In this document: one piece after another, positions 15,216 to 63,609 of the stretch | Position numbering within the stretch: position 1 is the stretch's first letter | Layout of the letters: the number at the start of each line of letters is the position of its first letter | Assembly: GCA_046350795.1 (NCBI GenBank) | Contig: JAXLZT010000001.1 | Span: forward strand, 2,411 to 66,410 | Origin: Minisyncoccota bacterium | GTDB lineage: Bacteria; Patescibacteriota; Minisyncoccia; Phycocordibacterales; CALRHW01 | Direction: 5' to 3' | DNA length: 64,000 nucleotides | Notes under the pieces: model-generated | What the model saw: the letters and a program-made list of their open reading frames with translations, nothing else | Databases searched by the model: none | What the model was told of the DNA's origin: nothing | Program-made: the position numbers and the translations under genes

Positions 15216-15245
15216 AAAGGAGACAATATAAAATAAAAACATTGT

Positions 15246-15286
15246 GGGCCCGGCGGATTGCATCCGCCGGGCCCATTTGATTTCTT
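15246..15286. terminator. Bidirectional intrinsic terminator (GGGCCCGGCGGAT-TGCA-ATCCGCCGGGCCC)
   Basis: 13-bp perfect GC stem plus ATTTGATTT; between convergent genes. Confidence 0.7.
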
Positions 15287-15318
15287 GTCTACCTACTTGT
15301 CCACGATCCACGAACTGT

Positions 15319-15816
15319 TCACACCCTTGCCATCGAATGCAGAGGAAAACCCTTGATGGCCATCAGTGCGCCATCAATGATCATCACCTGCTCATGAAAC
15401 GGACCGATGGGAGGAGCGACCCCGAGAAATTCCTCGAGGTAATCCTTCACCTGCTCATAGGTTGCCCCGGACAGGATCATCTGGCGAGAGCTTGTGAGCG
15501 TGTATCGGATTCCCTGACGGATGAGCTCGGGGGTGGTGGGGCTAACCTCACCACCATCCTTACCACTCACCTCCAGGCACGCGTCCCTCTTCTCCTCGAT
15601 CTTGATCTGCTCTTCCCAGCAGTTCCGGGCCCACTCCACAGACCTCAGAGCAAGACGCGCCCTGGTGACCCGGAGAATCCGTGAGGCCGTCTTGCGACGG
15701 AAACCCATGGACCTGAGCTCCTTGAACTGCTCTTCAGCAAAGATCTTGCGCCTCTTCATCTTGCTCTGCCCACGAGACCAACGATCCCTCTGCATGATTG
15801 TTTCCAATCTGCCCAA
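15319..15816 (-). CDS. Hypothetical basic protein (about 158-165 aa) in a high-GC island
   Basis: GC ~57% ORF; N-terminus KMKRRK-rich; no recognisable family. Confidence 0.45.
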   Translation of the reverse strand: MGRLETIMQRDRWSRGQSKMKRRKIFAEEQFKELRSMGFRRKTASRILRVTRARLALRSVEWARNCWEEQIKIEEKRDACLEVSGKDGGEVSPTTPELIRQGIRYTLTSSRQMILSGATYEQVKDYLEEFLGVAPPIGPFHEQVMIIDGALMAIKGFPLHSMARV

Positions 15817-18999: not shown

Positions 19000-19093
19000 G
19001 ATCTTATTGTAACATTTTCAATATTATTATAGAATCACCGTTGAAATGTTCTCGACGTAGAGAGCAATACGTAAGTTCACAAGGAGGAACGGT

Positions 19094-19681
19094 ATGGGTA
19101 CAACAACACCAGACAAAACCGGTCCTGTGGAGATGAAGACCGGACTCAGTCTGAGCAGGTGTATTCCCCAGATCGCATCTGGGATCGTCGCGGAGGAAAA
19201 TGTGGCGAGGATCATCACCGCTACCAAGTACAACAGCGAGGAGAAGTGGAAACTCGCTGAAGACAAGCTCGCGAATGGTGACTGGGCAGCACATCCCGAG
19301 GCGGTGAACATTCTCCGGAGACTTCGTGTCGCCGGCAAGATCGTTCAGCCCCTCCTCGACAAGGGTCAGAAACCTGTTCTGCCAACTGATGGCAGGATCT
19401 GGATCTCTGAAGACGAAGAAGAAGATCTGCAGTGGACAACAGCTATCCCGGTTTCCGAGAAGGCTTCTCCCAGCCCAGCTGTCACTACTGATCCGATTGA
19501 AGTCATGGACGATCCCGCCCCAACGACGGCAAAGGCTCGTGCCACCACACCATCGGCCACCCGTACGACCCCACCCGTACGCGACATGCCACCCGCCACA
19601 CCAAAGGTGACTGGATGGAGGAGTTTCTTCGCCATCCCCAACTGGATCCGTCTGAGGTCGAAGAGGTCGAAACACAAGTGA
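19094..19681 (+). CDS. Hypothetical protein (195 aa) with Pro/Thr-rich C-terminal half, high-GC island
   Basis: Strong SD AAGGAGG 7 nt upstream; terminator downstream; GC ~55%. Confidence 0.55.
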   Translation: MGTTTPDKTGPVEMKTGLSLSRCIPQIASGIVAEENVARIITATKYNSEEKWKLAEDKLANGDWAAHPEAVNILRRLRVAGKIVQPLLDKGQKPVLPTDGRIWISEDEEEDLQWTTAIPVSEKASPSPAVTTDPIEVMDDPAPTTAKARATTPSATRTTPPVRDMPPATPKVTGWRSFFAIPNWIRLRSKRSKHK

Positions 19682-19726
19682 ATCACCTCGACATTCGACC
19701 AAAACCATCGCGAGACAAGGACCCAC

Positions 19727-20456: not shown

Positions 20457-21482
20457 TTAAATAAACTGGCCAGATTTCACCACATGATCTACGAGCGTAT
20501 GGGTATACCCCATTTCGTTGTCATACCATGCAAGTACTTTTACAAGATTTCCGCCCACTACACGTGTAAAAGAAAGATCTGCGATAGACGCAAAACGACT
20601 TCCCTTTATGTCAGATGATACCAACTGTTCTTCTGTGACAGAAAATATATTTACCCAACGTTCATCCTTTGAAGCTTTTTTCAAAATTTCATTTACTTCT
20701 TCTTTTGTTGTATCGCGCTTGGCAATAAAAGTAATGTCTGCAATAGAACCCACCACAACAGGAACACGCATAGATATACCATCAAACTTTCCTACAAGCT
20801 CAGGAAAAGCTTTTGTTACAGCAATAGCTGCACCAGTAGATGATGGCACTATGTTTTGTGCAGCAGATCTACCTTCACGAAAATCTTTTTTATTTGGACC
20901 ATCGACTATAGACTGACTCGCTGTATAAGCATGCACTGTGTTTAGCATTGCTTTTTCTATACCTATAGCTTCATGCAAGATTGCAATAAGAGGACTCGCT
21001 GAGTTTGTAGTACAAGAAGCGTTTGAAGTAACAACACAGCTAGCAAACTTGTCTTCGTTGATACCCATTAAAATAGTAGCGCCATCTGCAGGAGCTTCGT
21101 CTTTTGCAGGAGCACTAATCACTACACGTTTTGCGCCAGCAGTGATATGCACCTTTGCACTTTCAAAAGAAGTGAAAAGTCCTGTTGACTCCACCACAAC
21201 ATCAACACCCAAATCTCCCCAAGGCAAAGCCGCTGGTTCTTTTTCACTAAAATACTTTACTGTCTTTCCATCAACCAACAAAGATTTTTTATCTTCAGCA
21301 ACAGAAACATCAAAAGGAGTCACACCATAAGCAGTGTCGTACTTTAGTAAATAAGCAATGTTGTCTATGTTGCCGAGATCATTTACAGCAACGACTTCCA
21401 AATCCTTTCTACCATGAGCTACTTTTATAAATGCTCGCCCTATTCGCCCCGCACCATTTATCGCAACTTTTATTTTTTTCAT
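20457..21482 (-). CDS. gap: Glyceraldehyde-3-phosphate dehydrogenase
   Basis: INGAGRIGR Rossmann motif, SNASCTTN active site. Confidence 0.9.
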   Translation of the reverse strand: MKKIKVAINGAGRIGRAFIKVAHGRKDLEVVAVNDLGNIDNIAYLLKYDTAYGVTPFDVSVAEDKKSLLVDGKTVKYFSEKEPAALPWGDLGVDVVVESTGLFTSFESAKVHITAGAKRVVISAPAKDEAPADGATILMGINEDKFASCVVTSNASCTTNSASPLIAILHEAIGIEKAMLNTVHAYTASQSIVDGPNKKDFREGRSAAQNIVPSSTGAAIAVTKAFPELVGKFDGISMRVPVVVGSIADITFIAKRDTTKEEVNEILKKASKDERWVNIFSVTEEQLVSSDIKGSRFASIADLSFTRVVGGNLVKVLAWYDNEMGYTHTLVDHVVKSGQFI

Positions 21483-21528
21483 TAATAAATATTCTTAATC
21501 TATAAGTGCTCTTAATTATATAACATTA

Positions 21529-22548
21529 TTACTCTATAGACATTGGCTCTGATTTTTTCTCTTCTTTCTTTCCATGAGAATGTCCATCTACTTCGTAGCT
21601 AGTGTTTTGTGCTTCAAAGAAATTTACAAGCTCATACACGTCTGTAGCTGTACTCATCCACTTTGCTGGATTTGTAACATTGTAATGCTTTGGCAAACCG
21701 AGCTCTTCGAGTCGGCGATCAGCTACATATTGTACGTATTGATTTACATAGTCTGCGTTTAGACCAAGTATTCCACGAGGGAAAAGATCTTTGTTGTAAG
21801 CGACTTCCAAATCAACTCCTTCTATTACTATGTTTCTTATTTCGTTTGCAAACTCTTCTGTGAGAAGCGCCTGATTTTCTTCCAAAATATTGTGAATTAG
21901 ATTTATTCCAAACTGTAGATGAAGACTCTCATCGCGAAGAACCCAATTTATCATTGAACCAAAATTGCGAAGCTGATTGCGCTGACGGAAAGAAAGGGCA
22001 ACCATAAATCCACTGTAAAACCAAATGCCTTCCATCACTATGTTTGTAGCAACAAGATTTCTAATGAAGTCTTTTTTTCCTTCTACAGTAGATATATCAA
22101 GAGTATCTTCTGTCATCCTCTTCATGTATTTTCCGATATAAGCTTCTTTTGCAAGCATTGAAGGCACCTGTAGATGAAGATCGAAAATCTTTTCTCGATC
22201 AAAAGGGAAAGTTTCAAGAACGTACTCAAAAGCTACACAATGATTTGCTTCTTCCCACATTTGCTTTGCGAGATACAAATGACATTCTGGAGATTTGAGG
22301 TAAGGATAAATACCGAGAGCGATAGATCTGTTGACTATGAGTTCGGCTGGATTAAAGAACGCCATTAAAAATTTAACAGCGTGTCTTTCATCTTCTGTCA
22401 TTTTTTCCCAATCTTCCAAATCTTCTTTAAGAGCGATTTCATGTGGAAACCATGTATTTCTTACTGCTTGATTATATAGATCGTATGCCCACTTATAATT
22501 TAGTGGATGCAAATTCATATCTTCTGGTGAGGCTTTTCCTATGAGCAT
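21529..22548 (-). CDS. nrdB: Ribonucleoside-diphosphate reductase beta subunit (class I)
   Basis: Ferritin-like di-iron ligands (EEANH, ESLHL). Confidence 0.85.
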   Translation of the reverse strand: MLIGKASPEDMNLHPLNYKWAYDLYNQAVRNTWFPHEIALKEDLEDWEKMTEDERHAVKFLMAFFNPAELIVNRSIALGIYPYLKSPECHLYLAKQMWEEANHCVAFEYVLETFPFDREKIFDLHLQVPSMLAKEAYIGKYMKRMTEDTLDISTVEGKKDFIRNLVATNIVMEGIWFYSGFMVALSFRQRNQLRNFGSMINWVLRDESLHLQFGINLIHNILEENQALLTEEFANEIRNIVIEGVDLEVAYNKDLFPRGILGLNADYVNQYVQYVADRRLEELGLPKHYNVTNPAKWMSTATDVYELVNFFEAQNTSYEVDGHSHGKKEEKKSEPMSIE

Positions 22549-22575
22549 ATTTTATTTTTATTATCGTTCTTGTAA

Positions 22576-25230
22576 TTACTGACAACTATCACAAACATTT
22601 GCTTCTGAAGGATCTTCTGGCATATGCACTTTATATTCCTTCTTCATCTCTACATGACTCGATGGTGGTGTAAAAGATGTTGGTGTAGAAGACGCGACGG
22701 AAGCAAATCCTTTCATTTCTACTTTTGGTGTTTGTACATTTTGAGCTACAAAAGAAGGTTGCGCTGGAACTGTTTCTAGTGGTAAAGGAGAAGTCACCGC
22801 ACCCACAGCAGCAAAAGCGGGAGTAGAGAGTGGTGACGCAGCTTTCATAGAGGAAACACCAGCAAATCCAACCTTTCCTATTTTCTGTGCTTTATTTACA
22901 GACACGGTGCTCTGTTCGGCAGTATGACGAGGCTTCATGTGTAGATAGTAAGTAGTCTTTACTCCCTTTTCCCAAGCACTCATGTAAATATTTATAGTCT
23001 CATCAATATCTCTAGTCTCTAGATACATATTTCTAGACAGAGCTTGATCAATCCACTTTTGAGCACGAGCTGCGACTTCTACATAAGCATAAGGAGAAGT
23101 TGTAAATGATGTTTTGTAAATATCTTTTATGTGCTGAGGTATTTGCTCTATTTGAGAAATATCTCCCTGGTTTTCGATAATCAAAGCTCTTGTCTGCTCC
23201 CAAATACCCATGTTCTTTAAATCTTTCACAAGATTGTGATTCAAATCCAAATATTTTCCTGAAATTTTATTTCTAGAAAAAACCTGCGCAAAACGTGGAT
23301 CAATACCAGGAGTAGTAGCTGCAACCAATCCAATATTTGCGTTTGGAGCGACAGCCATCAAGGTAGCGTTTCTGATTCCGTTTTTCACTTTTGCTCGTAG
23401 CACGTCCCAATTTAATCCTTTGTGTTTACTTTCTTTTGAAACAGTCAGTGGTATTCCTCTATCAGCTTCAAGTGTTTGCAATGTATCAAAAGGAACTTTT
23501 CCTTTTGACCATTCTGATCCTGCAAAATTTGTATAACTTCCCCTCTCTTGAGCAAGATTTGCGCTTTCATCTATCGCCATGTAGCTAATGAATTCAAAAA
23601 TCCTGTCAGCAAAATCCCAAGCATGAGGGCTGTCATATGACATGCCGAGTTTTTCTATCGTATCTGAAAAGCCCATGACACCGAGACCCACAGCTCTATT
23701 TTCTCTATCTGATTTTACAGCTTCAGGTATAGGGAGCTCGTTTATATCAATCAAATTGTCTAACTGTCGCACAGCGAGGCGAATACTGTCTTCCAATTTT
23801 CCCCAATTTACCTCTTTGTTTTTTACGTGAGCAGCTAGATTTAGAGAAGCTAGATTACATACAGCTACATTGTCTTTGTCTTGAGGTAGACAAATCTCAG
23901 TACAGAGATTGGACATATGGATAGTGCCGGTATTGTTGTTTAAAGCACGCAAATTTATAGGATCTTTCCAAGTCAACCAAGGGTGAGATGTTGTTTGCAA
24001 AGCAACGAGGATTTGTCTGAATTGTTCTCTAGCTGGAACCTTTTTGAAAGTTCGAAGCTTACCAGCATTCGCCATCTCTATGTATTCTGCATATCTCTTT
24101 GCAAATTTTTGTCCGTAAAGCTCGTTTAAATCTGGAGTTTCTTTTGGATCAAACATATACCAATCTTCACTTGCCTTCACACGACGCATAAATTCATCAG
24201 AAAGAAACGCAGCGGTATTTGCAGTACGCATTCTCATGTAATCATCTCCAGCGTTGTGTTTCCAATCAATAAATTCTGGAAAATCAAGATGCCAATTTTC
24301 CATATAGAAACAAAGTGCTCCCTTCTTTTTACCTCCTCTTTGAATAGCACGGATAGCTGTATCGATAATTTTTGCAAAAGGTGTAGGACCTGTAGATGTG
24401 CCGTTGTTTGAAAGCAAAGGAGAACCCGCTGCGCGAAGTTTTGTCATTGACGCACCAATACCTCCAGAGCCTTTTGACAACTTCATTACATCAGAAACTG
24501 ATTTTGCAATATGATCCATGTCGTCGTGGATTTCAAGCAAGAAACAATTTGAAAGAGATGGTCGAGTAGTACCTGCACCCAAGTTTGTTGATCCTCCCGC
24601 AAGATATTCGAGCTTAGACATTTTGTTGTAAAACTTTTTTGCTTGCTCAGTCGGATCTTTTTCGTTGTAAGAAAGTCCCATCGCAACTCTCATGAAAAAA
24701 TATTGCGGGGTCTCGCGAGGGGTTTGATCTAAATTTTTTAAAGCATATCTGTTGAGCAAACTAGAAAGTCCTGCGTATTGAAAAAATTCATCACGTTCAA
24801 TATGAAGTGCGTCTGCTATTTCTTCAAGACGAAACTTCTCAATCATATTTTTATGAAGTTTTCCTTCTTCTACTCCTTTTTTTATAAAAGAAATGAAGGT
24901 TTGCTTGTGTCTTCTTTCCAAATCCGCATCATCATCCTTATCAAACTCACCAATCACCTTTCGGTAGACAGTTTTTAGCAAAAGTCTTGTTGCAACCTTG
25001 TCATAATCAGTGTCTTCTTTGACGTTTTGTAGTGCAGCATTGATAGTAGCCTGATCTATTTCTTCTGTTGTGATGCCATCATATAAAGTGAGACGAGTTT
25101 CTGTTGCAATCTGAGTCACCATTCCTATCGGATCAAGCATTCCCTTACAAGCTCGCTCGATTGATCTATTTATTTTATCTGCATTAAAAGATTCGTGGGC
25201 TCCGTCTCTCTTTTTTATTGTGATGCTCAT
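22576..25230 (-). CDS. nrdA: Ribonucleoside-diphosphate reductase alpha subunit (class I) with ATP-cone and ~150-aa Ser/Thr/Pro-rich C-terminal extension
   Basis: ATP-cone at N-terminus (KRDGAHESFNADKINRSIERA), catalytic NLCTEI..C, C-terminal CDSCQ. Confidence 0.9.
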   Translation of the reverse strand: MSITIKKRDGAHESFNADKINRSIERACKGMLDPIGMVTQIATETRLTLYDGITTEEIDQATINAALQNVKEDTDYDKVATRLLLKTVYRKVIGEFDKDDDADLERRHKQTFISFIKKGVEEGKLHKNMIEKFRLEEIADALHIERDEFFQYAGLSSLLNRYALKNLDQTPRETPQYFFMRVAMGLSYNEKDPTEQAKKFYNKMSKLEYLAGGSTNLGAGTTRPSLSNCFLLEIHDDMDHIAKSVSDVMKLSKGSGGIGASMTKLRAAGSPLLSNNGTSTGPTPFAKIIDTAIRAIQRGGKKKGALCFYMENWHLDFPEFIDWKHNAGDDYMRMRTANTAAFLSDEFMRRVKASEDWYMFDPKETPDLNELYGQKFAKRYAEYIEMANAGKLRTFKKVPAREQFRQILVALQTTSHPWLTWKDPINLRALNNNTGTIHMSNLCTEICLPQDKDNVAVCNLASLNLAAHVKNKEVNWGKLEDSIRLAVRQLDNLIDINELPIPEAVKSDRENRAVGLGVMGFSDTIEKLGMSYDSPHAWDFADRIFEFISYMAIDESANLAQERGSYTNFAGSEWSKGKVPFDTLQTLEADRGIPLTVSKESKHKGLNWDVLRAKVKNGIRNATLMAVAPNANIGLVAATTPGIDPRFAQVFSRNKISGKYLDLNHNLVKDLKNMGIWEQTRALIIENQGDISQIEQIPQHIKDIYKTSFTTSPYAYVEVAARAQKWIDQALSRNMYLETRDIDETINIYMSAWEKGVKTTYYLHMKPRHTAEQSTVSVNKAQKIGKVGFAGVSSMKAASPLSTPAFAAVGAVTSPLPLETVPAQPSFVAQNVQTPKVEMKGFASVASSTPTSFTPPSSHVEMKKEYKVHMPEDPSEANVCDSCQ

Positions 25231-25539
25231 GGTTTTTTGATTCGTTAATACAGTTGTAAAAGTTTGTCATATCATTTTACATTAAAAAAGTAGTCACCAG
25301 AACAGTGGATAAGCCTATTTTTGGTGGTTAGATAATAGAAAAACGGCAACGTAAAGATGGCTCTTAAATGAGCCTTATATAACAAAACAAAATGACAGAT
25401 TTTTGAAGAAAAAATAAAGAAAAAATAAAAAAATAACCGGTTTTTGTAAGAAAAAGTGAAAAAATTAATGAAAAGGGGGCGAGTCCTGCTAAACTCGCTC
25501 CCTGTGGCAATTCATTGGCGCAATTTCCCGCGCACGCAT

Positions 25540-26502
25540 TTAGATTGATGTCTTAGCGATCTTTCGATCTGGTGTTTTTACATTCCACACGAGTCCCAAC
25601 AAACGGAAGGTGCAGATGATGTAATAACTCGGATCGATTTCCCACCAACGATGTTGCACCGTGGCAGATACCTGATCGTAGTGATGGTTGTTGTGCCAAC
25701 CCTCACCACCAGTAATGATCGCAACCCACCAACTATTGCGTGACTCATCTTTTGACTTGTAGTTTTGGTAACCCCACATGTGTGTCGCCGAATTGACGAG
25801 CCAAGTGGAGTTCCAAAAAAACACAGTCCTCACCGCAACACCCCAAACAACGAAGCTGAGTGCCGTCTGGTAAGCTTTGGTGATGCCGTCTTGCGCAAAA
25901 CCAATAACAAAACCGACAGCAAAGATGACGATGGCGTGCAAGAGCCACACCAAAAGCCAACGGTTGTGCCTGTGCATCCACACGTGGAAAGGATCTCTCT
26001 GCAAATCTCTGGTGTTTTGGTACACTGCCTCTCCCTCAATCGCCTTATTGAAAAAGAGGAGCCAACCAATGTGAGACCACAAGAAATTTACTAGTGGCGT
26101 ATGCGGATCGGGTTGTGTGTCGGAATGATGATGATGCCTGCGATGTACAGACACCCACCAAAGACTCGAACCTTCAAGGTTGCAGAAAGCGAGCATTGTG
26201 AGAAGTCGCTCAAACCACCTTGAACATTCAAAACTACGGTGAGTGAGTAGACGGTGGTAGCAGATGCCGATGCCACACCAACCAATGGGCACGATCAGCG
26301 CAAACATCAAGGCAAGAGCCGAGCCAGAAAAAAAACTCGGCACCAATCCGCACAGCGCAAGTACACCACCCACAACAACAAACAAGTGCAGTGAGATGAT
26401 GAAGATCGCGCTTACCCAGTTGGGTGATATCACACCCTCAGGTATCTGTAGTGGATCCACGTTAGAGGGATCACGCACAGAATCAGCTTTAATAACACTC
26501 AT
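25540..26502 (-). CDS. Membrane fatty-acid (acyl-CoA/acyl-lipid delta-9-type) desaturase, high-GC island
   Basis: Three His boxes HRLLTH, HRRHHHHSD, HNNHHYD; 4 TM; SD AAGGAG 9 nt upstream; GC ~55%. Confidence 0.8.
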   Translation of the reverse strand: MSVIKADSVRDPSNVDPLQIPEGVISPNWVSAIFIISLHLFVVVGGVLALCGLVPSFFSGSALALMFALIVPIGWCGIGICYHRLLTHRSFECSRWFERLLTMLAFCNLEGSSLWWVSVHRRHHHHSDTQPDPHTPLVNFLWSHIGWLLFFNKAIEGEAVYQNTRDLQRDPFHVWMHRHNRWLLVWLLHAIVIFAVGFVIGFAQDGITKAYQTALSFVVWGVAVRTVFFWNSTWLVNSATHMWGYQNYKSKDESRNSWWVAIITGGEGWHNNHHYDQVSATVQHRWWEIDPSYYIICTFRLLGLVWNVKTPDRKIAKTSI

Positions 26503-26556
26503 GGTGATCGTCTCCTTGGATAGATCTAAGAGGAAATGGAAGGAACGCAAACTATA

Positions 26557-27015
26557 CTATAGCACAACCCTGTCTCCCACCTTTATCTTATTTTTTTCTA
26601 CAAAACCAGAATTAACTTCCAAAACATACATGGCTTCTTTTGGTGGAATAAATATCTCAGGAAAAGATTCTGGCTTTGCGTCTTCTTTTATATAAATAAC
26701 GTGGAAATTTTCATCAATCCAGACTATATCTATCGGAAATTTCATATCTTTCATCCAAATACCGGCTAATTGAGGCTTTTCAAATACAAAAAACAAACCA
26801 GAGTCAGGAGGCAAAGAGTCACGACCAGACAAACCGTGCATTCTTTTTTCTTCTGTATCTACCTTCTCTATATTTATGTAAACACCTCCTATAGAAAATC
26901 CGTTGACTGGAGCAAGAGTCGCCTTTTTGTAATAGAAAAAACAAAAAAGCAAAATTAGAAAAATAGAAACGGCAAGAAAAACACTTTTTTTATTTTTCAT
27001 CTTTCTTTGGATCAA
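26557..27015 (-). CDS. DUF192-family protein (secreted)
   Basis: N-terminal TM; DUF192-like core (FPIDIVWIDENFHVIYI). Confidence 0.6.
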   Translation of the reverse strand: MIQRKMKNKKSVFLAVSIFLILLFCFFYYKKATLAPVNGFSIGGVYINIEKVDTEEKRMHGLSGRDSLPPDSGLFFVFEKPQLAGIWMKDMKFPIDIVWIDENFHVIYIKEDAKPESFPEIFIPPKEAMYVLEVNSGFVEKNKIKVGDRVVL

Positions 27016-27361
27016 GAGTAAGACAAATAGAATTTATACAATATCTATGTCCGGTCTCTGTGGGACCATCTGGAAAGACATGTCCGAGATGTGCTCCACA
27101 TTTTTTACAAAGCACTTCGGTGCGAGTCATCCCCAGATCGTTGTCTTCACGTGTTTCAATATTTTCGTTTGAAATTACGCTATCAAAACTCGGCCAACCA
27201 GTGCCCGAATCAAACTTTGTATCGGAGGAAAAAAGTTCTGTACCACAAGACGCGCATTTGTAGGTGCCTTTTTCTTTTGAGTTCCAATATTTTCCAGAAA
27301 AAGGAGCTTCTGTCCCCTTTTCCCACATTACTTTCTTTTGTTCTGGAGTTAGATCTTCCAT
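26990..27361 (-). CDS. msrB: Peptide methionine sulfoxide reductase MsrB
   Basis: Two CxxC zinc pairs and catalytic RYCINS motif. Confidence 0.9.
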   Translation of the reverse strand: MEDLTPEQKKVMWEKGTEAPFSGKYWNSKEKGTYKCASCGTELFSSDTKFDSGTGWPSFDSVISNENIETREDNDLGMTRTEVLCKKCGAHLGHVFPDGPTETGHRYCINSICLTLDPKKDEK

Positions 27362-27382
27362 AAAGATAATTATAGCAAAAAA

Positions 27383-27961
27383 TTATCTCCTATATCTAAA
27401 GCAATCAACCGTATGATCATTAATCATTCCTACCGCCTGCATAAAAGCGTAGCAAATAGTAGAGCCGACAAACTTAAATCCACGCGCTTTCATATCGGCG
27501 CTCATTGCATCAGACTCTACAGAACGAGATGGTAGATGTTTATGCGTCTTCCATTTATTTATTTTTGGCTTACCTCCCACAAACTGCCAAATATATTTAT
27601 CAAAAGTGCCAAACTCTTTTTGTATCTGCAAAAATTGCTGTGCGTTTGTGATAGTCGCGCGGATTTTTAGCTGATTGCGGATTATGCCGGCGTCTTTCAT
27701 TAGAGACGCGATTTTCTTTTCATTGTACCTGGCGATTTTCTTCGCATCAAAATTATTAAAAGCCTTACGAAAATTTTCTCGCTTTTTTAAAATAGTTAGC
27801 CACGATAGACCAGCCTGAAATGCATCTAGCACCACAGCTTCAAAAAGTTTTTGATCATCATGTACTGGCATACCCCATTCTGTATCATGGTATGCGCGAT
27901 ATATGGCGTCATCACTCACCCATCCGCAACGGATTTTTTGTTTTTGAAGAGTTTTTTTCAT
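27383..27961 (-). CDS. tag: DNA-3-methyladenine glycosylase I
   Basis: Tag family; start moved to M33 of the ORF because upstream codons overlap tRNA-Ser. Confidence 0.85.
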   Translation of the reverse strand: MKKTLQKQKIRCGWVSDDAIYRAYHDTEWGMPVHDDQKLFEAVVLDAFQAGLSWLTILKKRENFRKAFNNFDAKKIARYNEKKIASLMKDAGIIRNQLKIRATITNAQQFLQIQKEFGTFDKYIWQFVGGKPKINKWKTHKHLPSRSVESDAMSADMKARGFKFVGSTICYAFMQAVGMINDHTVDCFRYRR

Positions 27962-33702: not shown

Positions 33703-34377
33703 CTACTTGCTCGTGGGCGGTTGCGTCGCAGGGCTCTGGGTGATGGAGCAACTCGAGGCTCCAGGCCCCCCGGCAGAACAGGAGGCGCTGCTGGCCTGAC
33801 TGCCGAGCACGCACTTGCACACCGGGTAGATGCCACTCGAGTTGAAGTTGCAGCAGGCGAAGTAGGCACTGTTGCCACAGGTCACCTGACACGTCTGAGG
33901 GCCCGCCGATGACGGGTTTCCATCAGCCGACGTCGAAACGTCAACGAAGGATCCCACGACCACCATGTTCCCAGCTCCGAGCTTGAGAACTTCCGGCTGA
34001 GACCCACCCATGATGAACTCGACGTCGGTGTGGCCACGATTCCAAATGAGCCCAGAGACAATCTCCTCGCCCATGGGAACCATGTCCGGGAACGTGTAGA
34101 CACGCCCAGACACCGTCGTGAGACGCCCGATCACGGTCAAGAGACCGGCGTCGTTCACGTACAGGGGTGCGGGGACGACGATGTACTCAGCCACGTTGAA
34201 CGTGAGGCCGATCGTTGCCATTTCCTCCGGCGACACCGAGGTCGCCCAGAGAAGGGTCCGCAGATCCCGGTCTTCCACCTTGCCGTTGGTAGAAGCGGTG
34301 GACGTCGAAGTGGTGATGAACGCCACCAGGCCCAGCACCAAGAGAACGAGAGCAGACAACGTCCGTGTCCGATTCAT
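33703..34377 (-). CDS. Secreted Cys-rich hypothetical protein, high-GC island
   Basis: Signal peptide (MNRTRTLSALVLLVLGLVAF); C-terminal Cys-rich tail; GGAG SD; GC ~58%. Confidence 0.55.
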   Translation of the reverse strand: MNRTRTLSALVLLVLGLVAFITTSTSTASTNGKVEDRDLRTLLWATSVSPEEMATIGLTFNVAEYIVVPAPLYVNDAGLLTVIGRLTTVSGRVYTFPDMVPMGEEIVSGLIWNRGHTDVEFIMGGSQPEVLKLGAGNMVVVGSFVDVSTSADGNPSSAGPQTCQVTCGNSAYFACCNFNSSGIYPVCKCVLGSQASSASCSAGGPGASSCSITQSPATQPPTSK

Positions 34378-34479
34378 GTGAATTCTCCAGTGAGTTACAG
34401 GATGCTTTGGCCTCAACGCACCTTGCGTCAAGTAGATTCCAATGTGCATCTAAAATTCACGATACGCTCATATAAAACT

Positions 34480-37135: not shown

Positions 37136-37510
37136 TTAGTTTGCTCTTGGACCCAAAAGAAAGAGAGAAAAAGTGGCTATAGCTAGACCACCATCACGCA
37201 CACCAGTAGGACTTAAACCAAAAGACCAAGCAATACCAGCAAGGTGTAAAGCCAACAAAAGAGCAACGATGCGAGTAAAAATATTTAATATAAGCAAGAC
37301 AGCTCCTATAATCTCCAAAATACCATTTGTAAGTATAATTTTTTCAGAAGTAAAAAAAGCAGGAAGGGATTTTAATATAGCCCAGTCAGGCAACATGCGA
37401 ACCCATTGTGATGGATGCATTACTTGTTGTATACCAAACCATAAAAAGACAGCAGCGATACCAAAGCGCAATACTATAAAACCAAACCTCTGCATTTTAT
37501 ATGAATCCAT
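37136..37510 (-). CDS. DoxX-family membrane protein
   Basis: 4-TM DoxX-like. Confidence 0.6.
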   Translation of the reverse strand: MDSYKMQRFGFIVLRFGIAAVFLWFGIQQVMHPSQWVRMLPDWAILKSLPAFFTSEKIILTNGILEIIGAVLLILNIFTRIVALLLALHLAGIAWSFGLSPTGVRDGGLAIATFSLFLLGPRAN

Positions 37511-37516: not shown

Positions 37517-37912
37517 TTAATTAATTAATACACCAATAAAAAATCCGTCTAACTCATTTGCTGGTCTAGACTGTCCACCGTGCTGATCGTTGAAAGCAGG
37601 ACTTCCATCTTTTCCGCAAATGCTGAGTATAGCTCCCTGTCCACCTGGATGTTGTCCTATCCAAGAAGTAAGGTTGTAAACTTTGCCATTGATAGCACTC
37701 CAGCAATCAGTCTTTGAGTTGTGTGTTTGCACTTGAGCCATGGTAAAAGATGATGCGGTCTGAGTTGTAGGTGCAGGTGTAGATGTGGGTGCAGTCGTAG
37801 ATGTAGGTGCAGATGGATTTTGTTTATCATTTCCGTTGCTAGATATAGTAAAAATAATGCCACCAGCAAGGACAATCAAAATCACGACACTAATTATTAT
37901 ATTTCTATTCAT
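37517..37912 (-). CDS. Membrane-anchored cytochrome b5-like heme-binding domain protein
   Basis: N-terminal TM, TP-rich linker, cyt-b5 fold with HPGG and FNDQHGG motifs. Confidence 0.7.
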   Translation of the reverse strand: MNRNIIISVVILIVLAGGIIFTISSNGNDKQNPSAPTSTTAPTSTPAPTTQTASSFTMAQVQTHNSKTDCWSAINGKVYNLTSWIGQHPGGQGAILSICGKDGSPAFNDQHGGQSRPANELDGFFIGVLIN

Positions 37913-39852: not shown

Positions 39853-40656
39853 ATGGGGACAAACGGAAAATCAAATCCGGACCGCTCCAAAGAGAGCGAC
39901 TCCGTGGATGTCTGGAAGCAGTACAAAGAGAATCCGAGCCAAGAGCTACGGAACAAACTCATACTCATGCATTACGGGGTTCTACTCGGCCACGCAAAAC
40001 GACAACACATCAGACTGAGGAAAATACTTTCCGTTGAAGAACTCGCGTCATACGGGCTCGATGGACTGATAGATGCCATTAATGCGTTTGATCCTGAACG
40101 TGGCATCAGGTTTGAGACATTCTGTTCACCCAGGATCTGGGGCTCGATGATAGACGGAATCCGCGAGATGGACTGGATCCCTCGCCTAGTCCGATCTAGA
40201 ACACGCAAGATTGAATCTGCGAGGGATCGTCTCAAACTGTCCTTGGGTCGAGATCCAACCCCCGAGGAAATACGAGAGGAACTCAAACTCAGCCCTGAAC
40301 AATATGAGAAAGAGAGTGGTGATTCACAACCAAAACACACCAACTCCCTCTCTCGTGAAGTGTGTGGGAATCAGCAAGGTGGCCGTGAGGTCTCACAAAT
40401 AGACTTCATCGAAGACGATGGATGTGAGAAGCCTGGAGATGAAGCCGATAGACAGGACCTGAGAAGATTCATGACTCGGGGGCTAGACCAGAAAAGTAGG
40501 CTCATCATCATCCTTCATCACTTCGAAGGCTTCAGCATGAAGGAGGTTGGTGAAATACTCTTCATGAGTGAGTCTCGGATATCTCAAATGCACACCGCAG
40601 CAATAGACGTGATTAGGTCAAACCTCGCACTGAAAGAGCTGTTGGACAAGCGTTGA
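39853..40656 (+). CDS. RNA polymerase sigma factor, sigma-70 family (FliA/WhiG-like group 3), high-GC island
   Basis: Region 2 (YGLDGLIDAINAFDPERGIRFETF), region 3, region 4 HTH (FSMKEVGEILFMSESRISQMHTAAIDVIRSNL); GGAG SD; GC ~55%. Confidence 0.8.
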   Translation: MGTNGKSNPDRSKESDSVDVWKQYKENPSQELRNKLILMHYGVLLGHAKRQHIRLRKILSVEELASYGLDGLIDAINAFDPERGIRFETFCSPRIWGSMIDGIREMDWIPRLVRSRTRKIESARDRLKLSLGRDPTPEEIREELKLSPEQYEKESGDSQPKHTNSLSREVCGNQQGGREVSQIDFIEDDGCEKPGDEADRQDLRRFMTRGLDQKSRLIIILHHFEGFSMKEVGEILFMSESRISQMHTAAIDVIRSNLALKELLDKR

Positions 40657-40678
40657 GAACAAAAAACAAAAACGCCTT

Positions 40679-40710
40679 TGGGCCGCCACGAAAGTGGCGG
40701 CCCATTTCAC
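40679..40710 (+). terminator. Intrinsic terminator (GGGCCGCCAC-gaaa-GTGGCGGCCC)
   Basis: 10-bp GC stem plus ATTTCACAT. Confidence 0.55.
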
Positions 40711-40791
40711 ATCATGTTATTGCCAAAAAAATATCATTGTGATTATATTGTGGGTGAAAAGTACACGCACAACCAACCCAGGAGCAACGAA

Positions 40792-41718
40792 ATGCCCAGC
40801 AAAAGCACCAGTGCAACCAAGTCAGAAAACGGTCAAGAACAGACCGGACAAATGCTCACGGTGGATATCAATCGTATTCGTCCGTTCAAAGAACAGCCGA
40901 GAACGTACTTCGAATCGACAGGTATCACCAACCTATCGAAAAGCATCAGGAACAAGCAGCGCCTCCCGATTTCCGTCATGCGCATTGAGGATGATCCCAG
41001 GCATGACTTCGAAATCATTGACGGAGAGCGTCGATTTCGAGCCGCAAAGGAGGCCGGGGTCAACAGGATTCTCGTTTGGATCAAGACCATCAGAAGCAAA
41101 GATGAGCAGTTCATCGACTCTGTGGTCTCCAACTTCGGACGAGAAAACCACACGGTTTTGGAGAAGGTAAACGCCTTCACTCGACTGCGACAGTGGTACA
41201 GCGCAGAAGAGATCGCTGAGCTGTGTGGTTGTCACTTCACGACCGTCTACCAGTACTTGTCACTTTCGAAGTTGGTGCCGGAAGCGTTGAAGAGGCTCGA
41301 TCCGAGCCTGCCAGAAGATGAGATGCTCAACTTCTCCACAGCAGCAAGACTCGCAACCCTTGATCCAGAGATCCAGCTCGACGTGCTTGAGCAGATCAGT
41401 GGCAAGAAGATGCCACATCGAGAAGTTCGACATTTCGTCCGGGCAAGAGCGCACGAGTCTGGAAAGCTGTCCAGCAGCAAGACGAAACCTGACAAGTATC
41501 GTCACAGACACTGGAACATGTTCACAGGATTTGTGAACCGGAGCGTTCAGGAGGCGAAAAGCATTGCCGACATGCCTGACAGCATGTTCGTGGAGGCTGT
41601 CACATCACGAACGAGAGCAGAAATGGAGTATTTCGAGAAGGAGGCCAACGCCCTCATTCGTGAGATCGAGAAACTCAAGAACAAGGTGATGAGAGCCAAG
41701 AAAACATCCTCGAAGTAG
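40792..41718 (+). CDS. ParB-like protein (ParB/Srx N-domain with GERRFRAA CTP-binding box, HTH, C-terminal coiled coil), high-GC island
   Basis: IIDGERRFRAAKEAG; HTH (SAEEIAELCGCHFTTVYQYL); start set at MPSKS with AGGAG SD. Confidence 0.75.
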   Translation: MPSKSTSATKSENGQEQTGQMLTVDINRIRPFKEQPRTYFESTGITNLSKSIRNKQRLPISVMRIEDDPRHDFEIIDGERRFRAAKEAGVNRILVWIKTIRSKDEQFIDSVVSNFGRENHTVLEKVNAFTRLRQWYSAEEIAELCGCHFTTVYQYLSLSKLVPEALKRLDPSLPEDEMLNFSTAARLATLDPEIQLDVLEQISGKKMPHREVRHFVRARAHESGKLSSSKTKPDKYRHRHWNMFTGFVNRSVQEAKSIADMPDSMFVEAVTSRTRAEMEYFEKEANALIREIEKLKNKVMRAKKTSSK

Positions 41719-57642: not shown

Positions 57643-58227
57643 TTAATAAACGGTTCGCAGAGCACGCTCAAGTCGACGTGAATTGTTGATATCACAAGTA
57701 TTATACCCACGTGATTCTATAGTAGTAATGATAATACCAGATGGCTCACCCAACAACGGATCACTTGGTCGCTTATTTACACGCACTATAGCACAAGGTC
57801 CAGTAATATCACCGTTTCCGTTTATGAAAAACTGAAAAATACTGTTTACTTGACCACTACCATCTGCGTCACCGCCAAGCTTTGCTGTAGTAGGTGTGGG
57901 TGGAGTAGGTACAGTGTACACCTCAGAAACACCATTGATAATTTCATTTCCATTACAATTAATGTCGTTAGCGGCATTTCCATTTGTGTAAAAGGCACTC
58001 TGTCCATTTGGATTTCTAGGATTTTTTGTATCCCAAAAAAGAGCACACTCTACACCAGTATCTGCAGCATAAAAAGCAGTCTGTGAATCCTTTCCTACAT
58101 ATGAAAGCAAAAGTTCTTTTAAAGATACATTGGAAAGTGCATATGTCACAAGAAGAAGGGTGCTCGTAATAATCACAGCCATAAGCAATGCAAATCCTTT
58201 TTCTTTTTTAATGTTTTTTATTTTCAT
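57643..58227 (-). CDS. Type IV minor pilin / pseudopilin-like protein
   Basis: Prepilin-type N-terminus KGFALLMAVIITSTLLL. Confidence 0.6.
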   Translation of the reverse strand: MKIKNIKKEKGFALLMAVIITSTLLLVTYALSNVSLKELLLSYVGKDSQTAFYAADTGVECALFWDTKNPRNPNGQSAFYTNGNAANDINCNGNEIINGVSEVYTVPTPPTPTTAKLGGDADGSGQVNSIFQFFINGNGDITGPCAIVRVNKRPSDPLLGEPSGIIITTIESRGYNTCDINNSRRLERALRTVY

Positions 58228-58228
58228 T

Positions 58229-58852
58229 TTAATAATCCAAATCTTTAAGTTGTTGCCAGTTGTACAAATTTTCTGACACTTCCACAGATCTATCTATACC
58301 GTTTTGTTTCCAATTGACCCTAACTTTTACTACAATCTGATTTTCACCATTATCCTGAGGATCACCGTCTTCTCTAAATATACTTATCTCTCTGTAAAAA
58401 GAACTCTGTGTCTTATTTAAATTTGATTCATATTGAAATTGTCCTGTTATATCATTCATGTAAAAAAGTGGGCATCCTTCTGCTGGACACGGCAAAGGTT
58501 TTCCATATAGTGGATTGCCTTCTGGATCAGAAAGTTCACCTGTACTATCAACAAAACACTCCTGGTCACCGTAACAAGGATCATTTTGGTCTTTCGCAAA
58601 ACCATTAAGCCAGGAAACATCTTCTGATCTATTTTTTAACATTTCCAAACCATTATTGTCTCTCAAGTGTCTTATTTGTTCTATTCCCTCTTGCGCCAAA
58701 TAGTAAGCAGTGATTTTGTTTTTAGCATAATTTGTAGACTGCAAACTTGATTGAGCGACAGCAAAAGTACCAGTAATAGAAAGAAGTAAAATAGATATAG
58801 CCACCAAAGCTTCGATAACTGTAAATCCTTTTTTTAGAAAATAATTTTTCAT
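58229..58852 (-). CDS. Type IV minor pilin-like protein
   Basis: N-terminus KKGFTVIEALVAISILLL (G/FTxIE prepilin motif). Confidence 0.65.
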   Translation of the reverse strand: MKNYFLKKGFTVIEALVAISILLLSITGTFAVAQSSLQSTNYAKNKITAYYLAQEGIEQIRHLRDNNGLEMLKNRSEDVSWLNGFAKDQNDPCYGDQECFVDSTGELSDPEGNPLYGKPLPCPAEGCPLFYMNDITGQFQYESNLNKTQSSFYREISIFREDGDPQDNGENQIVVKVRVNWKQNGIDRSVEVSENLYNWQQLKDLDY

Positions 58853-58855
58853 AAA

Positions 58856-59545
58856 TTATTTGTATACTATATCCAAAGATCTCTGGGTAATGGTCGTCTG
58901 TATATTAAACTGTGTTTTTGTAGACTCTTTTACACCAGCATATCCGCGCACCACCATTACCACACGTGGCTGTCTAGTATCTCCATCTGCAAAACCAGTT
59001 TGTTTATCTACAATAAGTGGCTCTGTATCAAAAACATAAAAAGATAGACTTTCTATATCCACCTCTGGAGAAGTAATCGAAACAAAAGAATCATCTTCTG
59101 TGCTATTTATAGATCTTTCTACTCGACCAATGTTTGTTTCTGGATCATTTACAAATCTATATCTAATTACGTCATTCACATTTCCGTCACCATCTAAATC
59201 TTTATTTGATAACATTGTTATTTCTTTTCCTGGATCAGTATTTTGACCTGCATTTTGATTACAATCAGCATTTTCGCCAATATAATCTCCTGGATTATTT
59301 CCATTTGGATACAAACTGTCTGCTATACCACAAAAATATCCTTTGCTCACAGTCATATTTTTTGCCATACCGTTTATCACCAAATTTAGATTATTTATCA
59401 CCGACTTCATGCTCTGATTTTTTTTGTTTACGTCTAAGATAGATAAAACGGCCGTAATACTAATGAGCATTACAATAGTAAAGATAGAGACCGCTACAAG
59501 CATTTCTATCAAGAGGAAACCATTTTTTTTATTTCTTTTTATCAT
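58856..59545 (-). CDS. Type IV minor pilin-like protein
   Basis: N-terminus KNGFLLIEMLVAVSIFTIVM. Confidence 0.65.
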   Translation of the reverse strand: MIKRNKKNGFLLIEMLVAVSIFTIVMLISITAVLSILDVNKKNQSMKSVINNLNLVINGMAKNMTVSKGYFCGIADSLYPNGNNPGDYIGENADCNQNAGQNTDPGKEITMLSNKDLDGDGNVNDVIRYRFVNDPETNIGRVERSINSTEDDSFVSITSPEVDIESLSFYVFDTEPLIVDKQTGFADGDTRQPRVVMVVRGYAGVKESTKTQFNIQTTITQRSLDIVYK

Positions 59546-59565
59546 TATCTTATTATCAAACCTAC

Positions 59566-60279
59566 CTATTCAAAAGCATTGCCTGGATCACCATTATCGA
59601 TAGGATCACCCGCCTCTTCAGACAAATATACAAGACACGAATCATTTACTATAGAAATTTGTCCTGTGGTATAAACATCTATTTGTTTTTCTCTACCTTG
59701 TGGCGACATGAGACATACCCTCACGGCTTGTGAAGCATGCCCACTACTAAACTCAAATCTAGCGTCTGGATCTGGTCGAGTAAATGTAATATCCAACTTG
59801 TCTCTTTTTACGTTGCCATTTCCATCATTAACGTCACAATACCAACCACTACTAGTACCAGCCTGCTCACATAAAGCGAATATATAATTGCCCCTACCGA
59901 TATCTGTCTTTTTTAATACCACATCTTGCATAGCATTATATTTTCCATCATGAACACCAAAAGCATCGGCAACATCAGCAAAAAATATAAAACTTAGATT
60001 ATCTTTACTTTTTCCAGTCGCAGTAGCGCCGAAATGTATACCGTATGGAGTATTAAATCTTTCTTCTTCTGGAGTATTTACACCCTCTTTAAAATCTCGC
60101 GCGCTCACCCCATATACCTGTGCCTGACGCAAAGCGAGTGCAACTTCATAGGATAAGTTTGTTATTTCTAGATTGTCGTTAAATTTTTGATGATTATAAA
60201 TAATAACAGCAGAAACAACGGCCATAATGGAAAAAGAGACCATTAGTTCAATCAGTGTAAATCCTTTTTTATATTTCAT
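59566..60279 (-). CDS. Type IV minor pilin-like protein
   Basis: N-terminus KKGFTLIELMVSFSIMAVV. Confidence 0.65.
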   Translation of the reverse strand: MKYKKGFTLIELMVSFSIMAVVSAVIIYNHQKFNDNLEITNLSYEVALALRQAQVYGVSARDFKEGVNTPEEERFNTPYGIHFGATATGKSKDNLSFIFFADVADAFGVHDGKYNAMQDVVLKKTDIGRGNYIFALCEQAGTSSGWYCDVNDGNGNVKRDKLDITFTRPDPDARFEFSSGHASQAVRVCLMSPQGREKQIDVYTTGQISIVNDSCLVYLSEEAGDPIDNGDPGNAFE

Positions 60280-60288
60280 GAATTTGTG

Positions 60289-61083
60289 CTAAAAAAAAGC
60301 CAAATATTTAGAGATATGAATGATATCCCAACCAAAGAAAAACACGAGCAGAGTACCGATGATAATAAACGGTCCAAAAGGTATTTCACTCTTCATTGTA
60401 AGATTTTTAGAAGACAAAGACAATACGCGACTCAAGATAATGAGCGTCAAACCCACTATCGCACCGATCCAAAAGGCCAATACAAGCGCAGAAATACCGC
60501 GCACAAAACCAAGCATAAAACCTACACCAACGACGATTTTGGCATCACCCAAACCTATCCATCGCCCACCAGACACCAGCCATAAAAGTGCGAAAGGTAG
60601 AGCAAGTATTGGACCAGCTAGAACATCCAAAAGAGAGTTGTTATGTAAGTAAAAAAAAGAGAAGAGAGAGAAAGCTAGCGTCACTGCCCCAAAAATAAAA
60701 GACCAAGAATCTGGAATTATTTTATGCTTAAAATCATAAATACTGATAACAATCAAAATACTGATAACAAAAAAATAATAGAAAATGAGCGGACTCAGAC
60801 CGACGTGTAAAAAAGTAGCCAAGAAAAGGAGTCCAGTGACAAGCTCAACGAGCGGATATTGTAGCGAGATCTTGCTTTTACACGCACTGCATTTACCTCC
60901 AAGAAAAATAAAACTAAACACAGGAATTAATTCATACCAATGAAGTGTTTTGCTACAAGAAAAACATTGTGATCTGCCACGCGCTATAGGCAATCCTGTA
61001 TTATGTCTCAAAGCAACGACGTTTAAAAAACTGCCCACTATAGTTCCAAAAATAAATATAAAAAATGAAATAAGTAAATACAT
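60289..61083 (-). CDS. pilD: Prepilin peptidase (A24 family)
   Basis: N-terminal CFSC...CSAC zinc cluster; multi-TM A24 core. Confidence 0.8.
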   Translation of the reverse strand: MYLLISFFIFIFGTIVGSFLNVVALRHNTGLPIARGRSQCFSCSKTLHWYELIPVFSFIFLGGKCSACKSKISLQYPLVELVTGLLFLATFLHVGLSPLIFYYFFVISILIVISIYDFKHKIIPDSWSFIFGAVTLAFSLFSFFYLHNNSLLDVLAGPILALPFALLWLVSGGRWIGLGDAKIVVGVGFMLGFVRGISALVLAFWIGAIVGLTLIILSRVLSLSSKNLTMKSEIPFGPFIIIGTLLVFFFGWDIIHISKYLAFF

Positions 61084-61089
61084 TAATAA

Positions 61090-61587: not shown

Positions 61588-61632
61588 TACAAATAATTCT
61601 AACACACAAATCTTCACATTAATCCACACAAC

Positions 61633-61660: not shown

Positions 61661-61681
61661 TTCTATAAAATCAAGAAATGA

Positions 61682-63595: not shown

Positions 63596-63609
63596 ATTTT
63601 TTTAAAAGA

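Follow-up and report, generated by a model that had tools for sequence, protein, structure and literature searches.

How bacteria in the candidate phyla radiation (CPR; Patescibacteria) build and tune their membranes without fatty acid synthesis is an open question, and it is raised again by a reverse-strand gene for a membrane fatty acid desaturase in a 64-kb stretch of contig JAXLZT010000001.1 (hereafter the window, which spans ∼11% of the 562-kb contig). NCBI labels the metagenome-assembled genome (MAG) "Candidatus Paceibacterota bacterium," in agreement with the CPR-like genome recognized in an initial annotation made from the sequence, and NCBI automatic annotation already calls the gene product "fatty acid desaturase." A literature search for fatty acid desaturases in Patescibacteria, CPR, or Parcubacteria returned nothing relevant, the matches being to gut microbiome studies, carotenoid desaturases, and community-level statements. 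The account that we consider fairly probable is that the gene codes for a functional Δ9 desaturase of Planctomycetota-like origin, is carried as an exchangeable cassette, acts on acyl chains scavenged from other cells, and draws on an electron donor other than cytochrome b5. The gene and its ribosome-binding site are as follows.

25540 to 26502, minus strand: coding sequence (CDS) of the type A desaturase, 320 amino acids (aa), SCD1/DesC-type (Δ9 family), based on Pfam, PDB-sequence match, invariant ligands, AlphaFold2 model, and the ratio of nonsynonymous to synonymous divergence (dN/dS)
26511 to 26517, minus strand: Shine-Dalgarno (SD) sequence AAGGAGA, with an 8-nt spacer to the ATG at 26502, read from the sequence

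An SCD1-type membrane desaturase

The enclosing open reading frame (ORF) extends from 25540 to 26550 on the minus strand, and the ATG at 26502 is the likely true start because AAGGAGA sits 8 nt upstream. The initial annotation had correctly noted this strong SD; it gave the gene the span 25470 to 26550, in which the ORF is real, but the CDS more likely occupies 25540 to 26502, and 25470 marks the end of the hairpin and T-run that follow the gene. Its figure of ∼55% G+C was overstated, since the CDS has 48.5% G+C (0.46 to 0.51 in 300-bp windows) and ∼54 to 55% is reached by third codon positions (GC3) alone. The ORFs of the window have on average 40% G+C and 33.5% GC3 (standard deviation, 10), and the desaturase gene is one among several GC-rich ORFs.

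Sequence and structure comparisons support the product as a genuine membrane di-iron desaturase of the SCD1/Ole1/DesC ("first," Δ9) type, a known kind of enzyme. It matches Pfam FA_desaturase (PF00487) with 76.3 bits against a cutoff of 29.7 (E value, 4e-21; profile positions 5 to 223 of 253), and a phmmer search of PDB sequences returns mouse and human SCD1 alone, aligned end to end (4YMK, 5e-25). The three His boxes named at the outset are present as HRLLTH (residues 83 to 88), HRRHHHHSD (120 to 128), and HNNHH (270 to 274); their HX4H, HX2HH, HX2HH spacing follows the SCD1 order (HRLLTH, HRRHH, HNNHH), they align to HRLWSH, HRAHH, and HNYHH of SCD1, and the fourth-helix motif NSTWLVNSATH is likewise aligned to NATWLVNSAAH. 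Ten residues are invariant in a 39-homolog alignment (H83, H88, H120, H123, H124, N237, H241, H270, H273, and H274); with the SCD1 structures 4YMK and 4ZYO as a guide, we take the nine His residues to be metal ligands and the Asn of the NxxxH motif to be the water-bridging residue.

Hydropathy and an AlphaFold2 model (pLDDT 87.3, pTM 0.86) locate hydrophobic segments at residues 33 to 51, 63 to 81, and 183 to 201 plus a helix at 207 to 242, with a basic and His-rich loop of ∼100 residues (82 to 182) between the two N-terminal helices and the second helical hairpin; the model suggests four membrane helices in two hairpins, with the His boxes probably facing the cytoplasm. A Foldseek search of the model against the PDB returns SCD1 entries only (template modeling [TM] score, 0.71 to 0.77; E value, ∼1e-11). 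Spacing, topology, and fold are thus all SCD1-like, and the desaturase assignment of the initial annotation stands. With 88 bits, short of the cutoff of 400, the protein falls outside the NCBIfam equivalog NF049918 "DesA family fatty acid desaturase," and dN/dS values of 0.09 to 0.11 show that the gene is under purifying selection.

The likeness to mammalian SCD1 (4YMK, 4ZYO, and 6WF2) thus extends to the three His boxes, the His and Asn of NxxxH, a full-length match, the four membrane helices, and a cytosolic di-metal site, and SCD1 is the sole significant structural match. However, identity to SCD1 is 23 to 25%, the bacterial host has no endoplasmic reticulum (ER), no cytosolic tail-anchored b5, and no b5 reductase, and the substrate may be a membrane lipid instead of acyl-CoA. 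A further difference concerns residues 108 to 113 (NLEGSS), which fall where the wall of the substrate tunnel is formed in SCD1: Glu is found in the CPR clade and in most of the sister clade, whereas SCD1 (AFQND) and most bacterial homologs (consensus of the 39, LQGS) carry Gln. Δ9 is the default regiospecificity of the family and is presumed for this enzyme; the automatic names given to homologs conflict, including acyl-CoA, acyl-lipid, and sn-2 palmitoyl-lipid 9-desaturase, and either substrate form may apply.

Horizontal acquisition

Acquisition of the desaturase gene by horizontal transfer into the ancestor of a small Paceibacteria clade is strongly supported by sequence comparisons. The transfer proposed in the initial annotation is borne out by an empty site in relatives, by phylogeny, by composition, and by discordant synonymous divergence (dS). 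Close relatives of the protein amount to six protein clusters at 64 to 99% identity, one of them named Candidatus Parcubacteria, after which identity drops to ∼50%. Among 185,579 species-representative genomes, a close copy (68 to 72%) is present in two CPR-type MAGs only, and the next matches are Planctomycetota at 40 to 48%. In a neighbor-joining tree (144 sequences, 295 columns, 200 bootstraps), the CPR desaturases are monophyletic (200/200), and they and their sister group (134/200) belong to a larger radiation in which most of the named sequences are from Planctomycetota; the sister group comprises 14 unnamed sequences, mostly with a high-GC-type amino acid composition, one of which clusters with a Phycisphaerae protein. 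The phylogeny nests the desaturase clade among Planctomycetota sequences and is incongruent with host taxonomy. The nearest non-CPR relatives are Planctomycetota Δ9 desaturases, which have the same length and motifs and 44 to 52% identity over >80% of their length; the CPR gene differs in residing in an AT-rich, reduced host and in standing alone in the gap between a DUF192 gene and nrdA. Cyanobacterial DesC is, we presume, the characterized analog of these Planctomycetota-type desaturases.

The slot, its borders, and the noncoding elements within it are as follows.

26557 to 27015, minus strand: DUF192 gene, upstream border of the slot (Pfam DUF192, 2.6e-30)
26990 to 27361, minus strand: msrB (methionine sulfoxide reductase B; Pfam SelR), first gene of a probable msrB-DUF192-desaturase unit
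21529 to 25230, minus strand: nrdA (22576 to 25230) and nrdB (21529 to 22548), class I ribonucleotide reductase (RNR), downstream border (Pfam ATP-cone, Ribonuc_red_lgN, Ribonuc_red_lgC, and Ribonuc_red_sm; NCBI name)
25470 to 25503, minus strand: GC-rich hairpin and T-run directly after the stop codon (sequence and RNA fold)
25410 to 25436, minus strand: 27-nt AT-rich tract TTATTTTTTTATTTTTTCTTTATTTTT, downstream of the probable terminator (search with ≤3 mismatches)
25417 to 26612, no strand: divergent cassette segment, with DNA identity to the near-identical related locus L005 of 53 to 77% inside and 89 to 99% on both sides (sliding window)

A metagenome scan with the NrdA of the window yielded 80 loci at 65 to 81% identity, and in 48 of these the slot is empty, with DUF192 located 73 to 476 bp (median, 260 bp) upstream of nrdA and nothing between; the corresponding distance in the window is 1,327 bp. 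Empty-slot lineages fall outside the carrier clade in NrdA trees, and the empty slot in these relatives is therefore direct evidence of gain. Type A occupies the DUF192-nrdA gap in one small CPR clade only, where the same gene and context are found in independent assemblies and in five related lineages, and the order (msrB-)DUF192-desaturase-nrdA-nrdB-GAPDH is kept in every CPR-clade member with readable context. The G+C excess of the gene is repeated in related loci L005, L006, and L031, whereas little of it is left in L032 (GC3, 0.37), in keeping with an acquisition that is older and has partly ameliorated.

Probable exchange of desaturase alleles

Comparison with L005 shows a sharp discordance between the desaturase and its neighbors. 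NrdA, NrdB, and the adjacent GAPDH are 98 to 99% identical between the two loci, whereas the desaturases share 73% identity, and the drop in DNA identity is confined to the divergent segment listed above. By the Nei-Gojobori method, dS is ∼2.0 for the desaturase gene versus 0.16 to 0.18 for nrdA, nrdB, the GAPDH gene, and DUF192, and dN/dS for the desaturase in this comparison is 0.11. This pattern indicates an old allele under purifying selection within young flanks, such that either the cassette was recombined or the flanks were homogenized around it.

Similarity to L005 is mosaic beyond the desaturase as well (window 20481 to 27961): DNA identity is 95 to 99% across nrdAB and the GAPDH gene, ∼85 to 92% in msrB and DUF192, and ∼80% in a 3-methyladenine glycosylase gene (protein, 70%), and collinearity stops at 20481. 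The mosaic suggests frequent recombination in the population. A type IV pilus/competence-like cluster at 57643 to 63990 (minus strand), of a kind typical of CPR, codes for a PilB-like ATPase fragment, PilC/T2SSF, a prepilin peptidase, four pseudopilins with N-methyl motifs, and a PilX_N-domain protein; these genes offer a plausible route of DNA uptake, which would be compatible with cassette exchange.

A second desaturase in the same slot

A second, distinct desaturase (type B) lies in the DUF192-nrdA gap of four other loci (L034, 4780 to 5826; L117, 4716 to 5615; L118, 8001 to 8900; and L119, 6001 to 6954). It is 31% identical to type A, the two types are split with 192 to 200/200 support, and Planctomycetota (Phycisphaerae and Fimbriiglobus) are again the closest relatives that have a name. 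Intact versions are P0264 (L117/L118) and P0271 (L119), on CPR-type contigs. In L034, whose NrdA is the closest in the metagenome set (81%), the type B gene is GC-rich (∼50 to 53%) and its product is 29 to 31% identical to the desaturase of the window; TAG replaces the Trp of GEGWHNNHH at the third His box, the N terminus is degraded, and the truncated product has been recorded from two contigs. NrdA of the type B locus L119 is 83.5% identical to that of the window, and that of the type A locus L032 is 83.1% identical. The type A carriers, L034, and L119 form one fully supported NrdA clade, with the empty-slot lineages outside it, and all seven members of the clade carry either type A or type B.

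Within this clade the two types share a noncoding frame, made up of a related spacer after the DUF192 stop codon, a similar hairpin after the gene (GGGGCGGTTTTCGCGAGAAAACCGCCCC in L005 and GGGGCAGTTTTCGCAAGAAAACTGCCCC in L119), and the 27-nt AT tract. The tract was found with ≤3 mismatches in 7 of 89 sequences searched, all of them desaturase-carrying loci of the one NrdA clade and of both types, and its sequence does not differ between the window, L005 (type A), and L119 (type B); the other 82 sequences, which lack it, are nrdA-containing loci, L033, and L117/L118. The hairpin at 25503 to 25470 is probably the intrinsic terminator of the msrB-DUF192-desaturase unit, a call made because of its shape, its T-run, and its recurrence in relatives, with analogous hairpins 3′ of the desaturase gene in L005, L006, L031, L032, L117, and L119; a consensus terminator scanner did not list it, and its fold z-score is just −1.7. 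At the other end of the unit, a promoter-like site precedes msrB at 27398 to 27369 (10/12 match, extended −10). A 24-nt AT-rich inverted pair near the cassette edges (25401/26582) was dismissed as chance, being of low complexity and having one arm inside the DUF192 CDS. Regions upstream of nrdA (window 25231 to 25400; L035 to L082) contain short conserved elements, CTTTACA ... TTATCCAC ... GTAAAAT, in carriers and empty-slot lineages alike, and these may be promoter or regulator boxes of the RNR operon.

The simplest reading of the shared frame is that one xenolog replaced the other in situ, and type B is probably the older occupant since it is also present in the distant L117, although the direction of replacement stays conjectural. 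A third desaturase lineage is present elsewhere, at 9926 to 10738 of L022, a "Parcubacteria group bacterium" contig, with 38 to 40% identity to types A and B and 49% G+C compared with 36% in its flanks. It is bordered on one side by a GIY-YIG nuclease gene and a major facilitator superfamily (MFS) gene, and on the other by a gene fusing LexA-like and DNA-methyltransferase-like sequence followed by a gene of 363 aa; it looks like a separate acquisition.

Other histories of the slot have to be weighed against this one. Types A and B may have entered the gap by two independent insertions at an insertion hot spot, a scenario that is possible though rather unlikely: at just 31% identity between the types, replacement of the CDS alone needs flanking homology, and the 27-mer tract is missing from the type B locus of the distant L117 (NrdA, 71%), but the A and B carriers of the NrdA clade have similar spacers, similar hairpins, and an identical 27-mer, and 7 of its 7 members carry one type or the other. 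Little credence is due to rapid adaptive evolution in place, with positive selection instead of import of an old allele by recombination accounting for a desaturase at 73% identity to its L005 counterpart beside proteins at 98 to 99%; synonymous divergence is saturated (∼2.0 versus 0.16 to 0.18), the dN/dS of 0.11 points away from fast adaptive evolution and from decay, and the sharp-edged loss of identity takes in noncoding sequence. That the gene is a relic or contaminant, either mis-binned or chimeric Planctomycetota DNA or a decaying pseudogene without a role, is scarcely credible. It is GC-rich relative to its surroundings, and a related slot occupant (L034) does contain a stop codon; nonetheless, the gene is embedded among CPR genes on a 562-kb contig with synteny conserved in independent assemblies, its ORF is intact with all ligands conserved and under purifying selection, and it has its own SD and a probable terminator.

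Cytochrome b5 and DoxX

The window also codes for a cytochrome b5-domain protein, which the initial annotation had put forward as the electron partner of the desaturase.

37517 to 37912, minus strand: N-terminally anchored cytochrome b5-domain protein, 131 aa (Pfam Cyt-b5, 4e-20, 72 bits)
37136 to 37510, minus strand: DoxX membrane protein, conserved downstream partner of the b5 gene (Pfam DoxX, 3.4e-8)

The description of a b5-like protein with an HPGG motif next to DoxX is accurate: HPGG forms residues 88 to 91, and the b5 ORF ends 6 nt before the DoxX gene. The second His is in FNDQH, there is one N-terminal hydrophobic segment, and all 120 b5 homologs compared keep HP[GA]G along with the second His. 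A short basic N terminus, one hydrophobic segment, a linker of ∼48 residues (77% S/T/P/A/G/N/Q), and a C-terminal b5 domain make up 113 of the 120, and a C-terminal tail anchor is found in none. Net charge of the N-terminal flank is at least +1 in 107 of the 113 anchored homologs (mean, +1.5 before the helix versus 0.03 after it), and under the positive-inside rule an extracytoplasmic heme domain is predicted for b5; the desaturase di-iron site, in contrast, is predicted to face the cytoplasm. The b5 of the window thus resembles microsomal cytochrome b5 in its Cyt-b5 domain, HPGG motif, and both axial His residues; however, microsomal b5, the donor to ER desaturases, is C-terminally tail-anchored and cytosolic, whereas the window protein has an N-terminal anchor, an S/T/P-rich linker, and a predicted extracytoplasmic location, and is genetically coupled to DoxX and not to a desaturase.

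The b5 gene is ∼11 kb from the desaturase gene and has a native composition (GC3, 0.27). Its homologs form at least 216 clusters, the named ones all being Patescibacteria (Parcubacteria, Taylorbacteria, Paceibacter, and Minisyncoccia), compared with 7 clusters in the desaturase clade. The b5-then-DoxX pair recurs in L115 (6001 to 6865) and L116 (6001 to 6821) in unrelated neighborhoods, and in L114 a small polytopic membrane protein of another kind is encoded after the b5 gene; no desaturase is located within 6 kb of b5 in any of the three. A tblastn search for b5 over the 20-kb locus of desaturase-bearing L032 detected none, although DoxX is present. We regard b5-DoxX as a separate, native, and widespread module that is apparently not linked to the desaturase. 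To our knowledge, the organisms concerned are generally thought to be without heme synthesis and quinones, and the module is odd in that setting.

Lipid context and electron supply

Fatty acid synthesis includes the FabA/FabB route, by which unsaturated acyl chains are made without oxygen, and class I RNR requires O2 for radical generation. The desaturase gene follows msrB-DUF192 and precedes class I RNR, and for this reason its context is taken as that of an oxygen-exposed lifestyle; oxic groundwater is among the reported habitats of Patescibacteria (PMC9938205). The ∼60 annotated genes of the window include no fab, acp, acc, or pls, and CPR bacteria are reported to be without complete lipid synthesis and probably take lipids from other cells (PMC7242380; PMC12455944), although a few CPR might synthesize lipids, according to Probst et al. 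(PMC7242380). Because CPR bacteria are reported without complete lipid synthesis and the window holds no lipid-synthesis gene, desaturation of scavenged acyl chains that adjusts fluidity is favored, and remodeling of scavenged lipids by the desaturase is plausible. Recurrence of two xenologs in one slot further argues that the function is selected.

Ferredoxin or flavodoxin serves bacterial and plastid acyl-lipid desaturases, and b5 serves ER enzymes (PMC9825965). The working model adopted here is Bacillus subtilis Des, a Δ5 acyl-lipid desaturase that modifies existing membrane phospholipids with electrons from ferredoxin or flavodoxin (PMC9825965). It differs in belonging to another desaturase subfamily with another regiospecificity, and, unlike for Des, no DesK/DesR-type regulator or donor gene is seen near the CPR gene.

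Two alternatives concern how the enzyme is supplied and what it is for. Use of the membrane b5 as a dedicated electron donor, as in the eukaryotic ER, is very unlikely, and the partnership first suggested is not upheld. Both are membrane proteins of the same genome, HPGG and the second axial His are kept, eukaryotic SCD1-type enzymes use b5 (PMC9825965), and some homologs bear the Joint Genome Institute (JGI) label "cytochrome b involved in lipid metabolism"; set against these are the N-terminal anchor, basic N-terminal flank, S/T/P-rich linker, and lack of a tail anchor that predict an extracytoplasmic heme, the wide occurrence of b5 (at least 216 clusters across Patescibacteria versus 7 for the desaturase clade), its conserved DoxX neighbor in loci without a desaturase within 6 kb (L115 and L116), the L032 locus with desaturase and DoxX and no b5 by tblastn over 20 kb, and a distance of 11 kb coupled with native composition. 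Ordinary housekeeping is also unlikely, if less so; here type II fatty acid synthesis (FAS) would be encoded elsewhere in the genome, and the desaturase would provide unsaturated fatty acids aerobically without any scavenging. The window covers only ∼11% of the 562-kb contig and a few CPR might make lipids, as noted above, both of which leave room for this explanation, but the ∼60 annotated window genes include no fab, acp, acc, or pls, Patescibacteria are reported to be without fatty acid biosynthesis (PMC12455944; PMC9938205; PMC7242380), and the desaturase is absent from most relatives.

A Planctomycetota-like Δ9 desaturase, exchanged as a cassette and acting on scavenged chains with a non-b5 donor, is the preferred explanation, and several points weigh against it. 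The desaturase tree is built by neighbor joining, with moderate support for the sister group (134/200) and with most sister sequences unnamed, and nrdA may itself recombine, which makes it an imperfect proxy of organismal phylogeny. The original insertion mechanism left no mobility signature in the form of an adjacent integrase or transposase gene or of attachment (att)-like direct repeats beyond AT-rich low complexity, and desaturases in phage records and IMG/VR are ≤32% identical (plasmid records were not searched). The 27-mer could be an upstream element of nrdA specific to the clade and not a part of the cassette frame. The sidedness predicted for b5 rests on the positive-inside rule. No ferredoxin, flavodoxin, or reductase candidate emerged within the window when every ORF of ≥40 aa was searched for motifs of ferredoxin, rubredoxin, thioredoxin, and glutaredoxin and the other ORFs were compared with Pfam, and genes for FAS, acyl activation, and electron donation may lie outside these 64 kb in a genome of at least 562 kb.

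The sequence of events under the preferred explanation would be as follows. The ancestor of a small Paceibacteria clade would have received the gene from a Planctomycetota-like lineage, and the gene would have landed between DUF192 and nrdAB, downstream of msrB, in the shared frame of spacer, CDS, hairpin, and AT tract. Alleles would then have passed from one lineage to another by homologous recombination acting through the conserved flanks, and the presence of type B in the same frame would reflect in-situ xenologous replacement under sustained selection for some desaturase. The enzyme is predicted to use O2 and two electrons to introduce a cis double bond, most likely at Δ9, into C16/C18 acyl chains. 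By analogy with other bacterial desaturases, the electrons most likely come from a soluble cytoplasmic donor of the ferredoxin or flavodoxin type encoded elsewhere, and not from the extracytoplasmic b5. Most probably, the acyl chains of lipids or fatty acids from other cells would be unsaturated in this way, such that membrane fluidity is tuned in oxic habitats. A bolder version, in which FAS is lacking genome-wide in a family-level Paceibacteria clade that desaturates captured lipids in acyl-lipid mode, with a slot twice filled by unrelated desaturases, alleles traded, and planctomycetes perhaps as hosts or partners, is put forward tentatively and is less likely than not.

Other features of the window

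The other genes of the window are typical CPR housekeeping genes, coding for nonoxidative pentose-phosphate enzymes, ribosomal proteins, release factors, PheST, RNase J, CTP synthase, LigA, GatA, and FtsEX, together with the type IV pilus cluster. An ORF at 33703 to 34449 (minus strand; 60% G+C; GC3, 0.75) separates the RNase J gene from the MFS gene, whereas these two lie next to each other in L031 and L032; its product has a signal peptide and a Cys-rich C terminus with no Pfam match, and the ORF is probably another foreign islet. The public call for the MFS gene (556 aa, GTG at 34030) is probably ∼160 codons too long, as judged from relatives of 392 to 393 aa. Two GC-rich segments (53 to 58%) at 15244 to 15816 and 19004 to 19726 contain orphan ORFs only, on either strand, with no Pfam match and no Rfam match at gathering or E-value threshold; gene content around the 19-kb segment differs in relatives such as L031. 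Adjoining sigma-70 and ParB_N-domain genes at 39853 to 41718 (plus strand) have ∼50% G+C and a GC3 of 0.53 to 0.63, above background, and this pair may be another acquired block.

Implications

A conserved O2-dependent desaturase under purifying selection provides a concrete handle on membrane tuning in CPR bacteria, and we argue from it that at least some of them modify scavenged lipids and do not merely accept what is taken in. For ultra-small bacteria, the locus is a clean example from nature of how a cassette is exchanged through its flanks and one xenolog replaced by another, and the repeated Planctomycetota affinity is a lead, and nothing beyond that, on who the donor or host may be. A "cytochrome b5" encoded by a bacterium need not be the partner of a desaturase, and that tempting inference is probably wrong here, where the protein is best assigned to a separate, widespread b5-DoxX module that is predicted to be extracytoplasmic.

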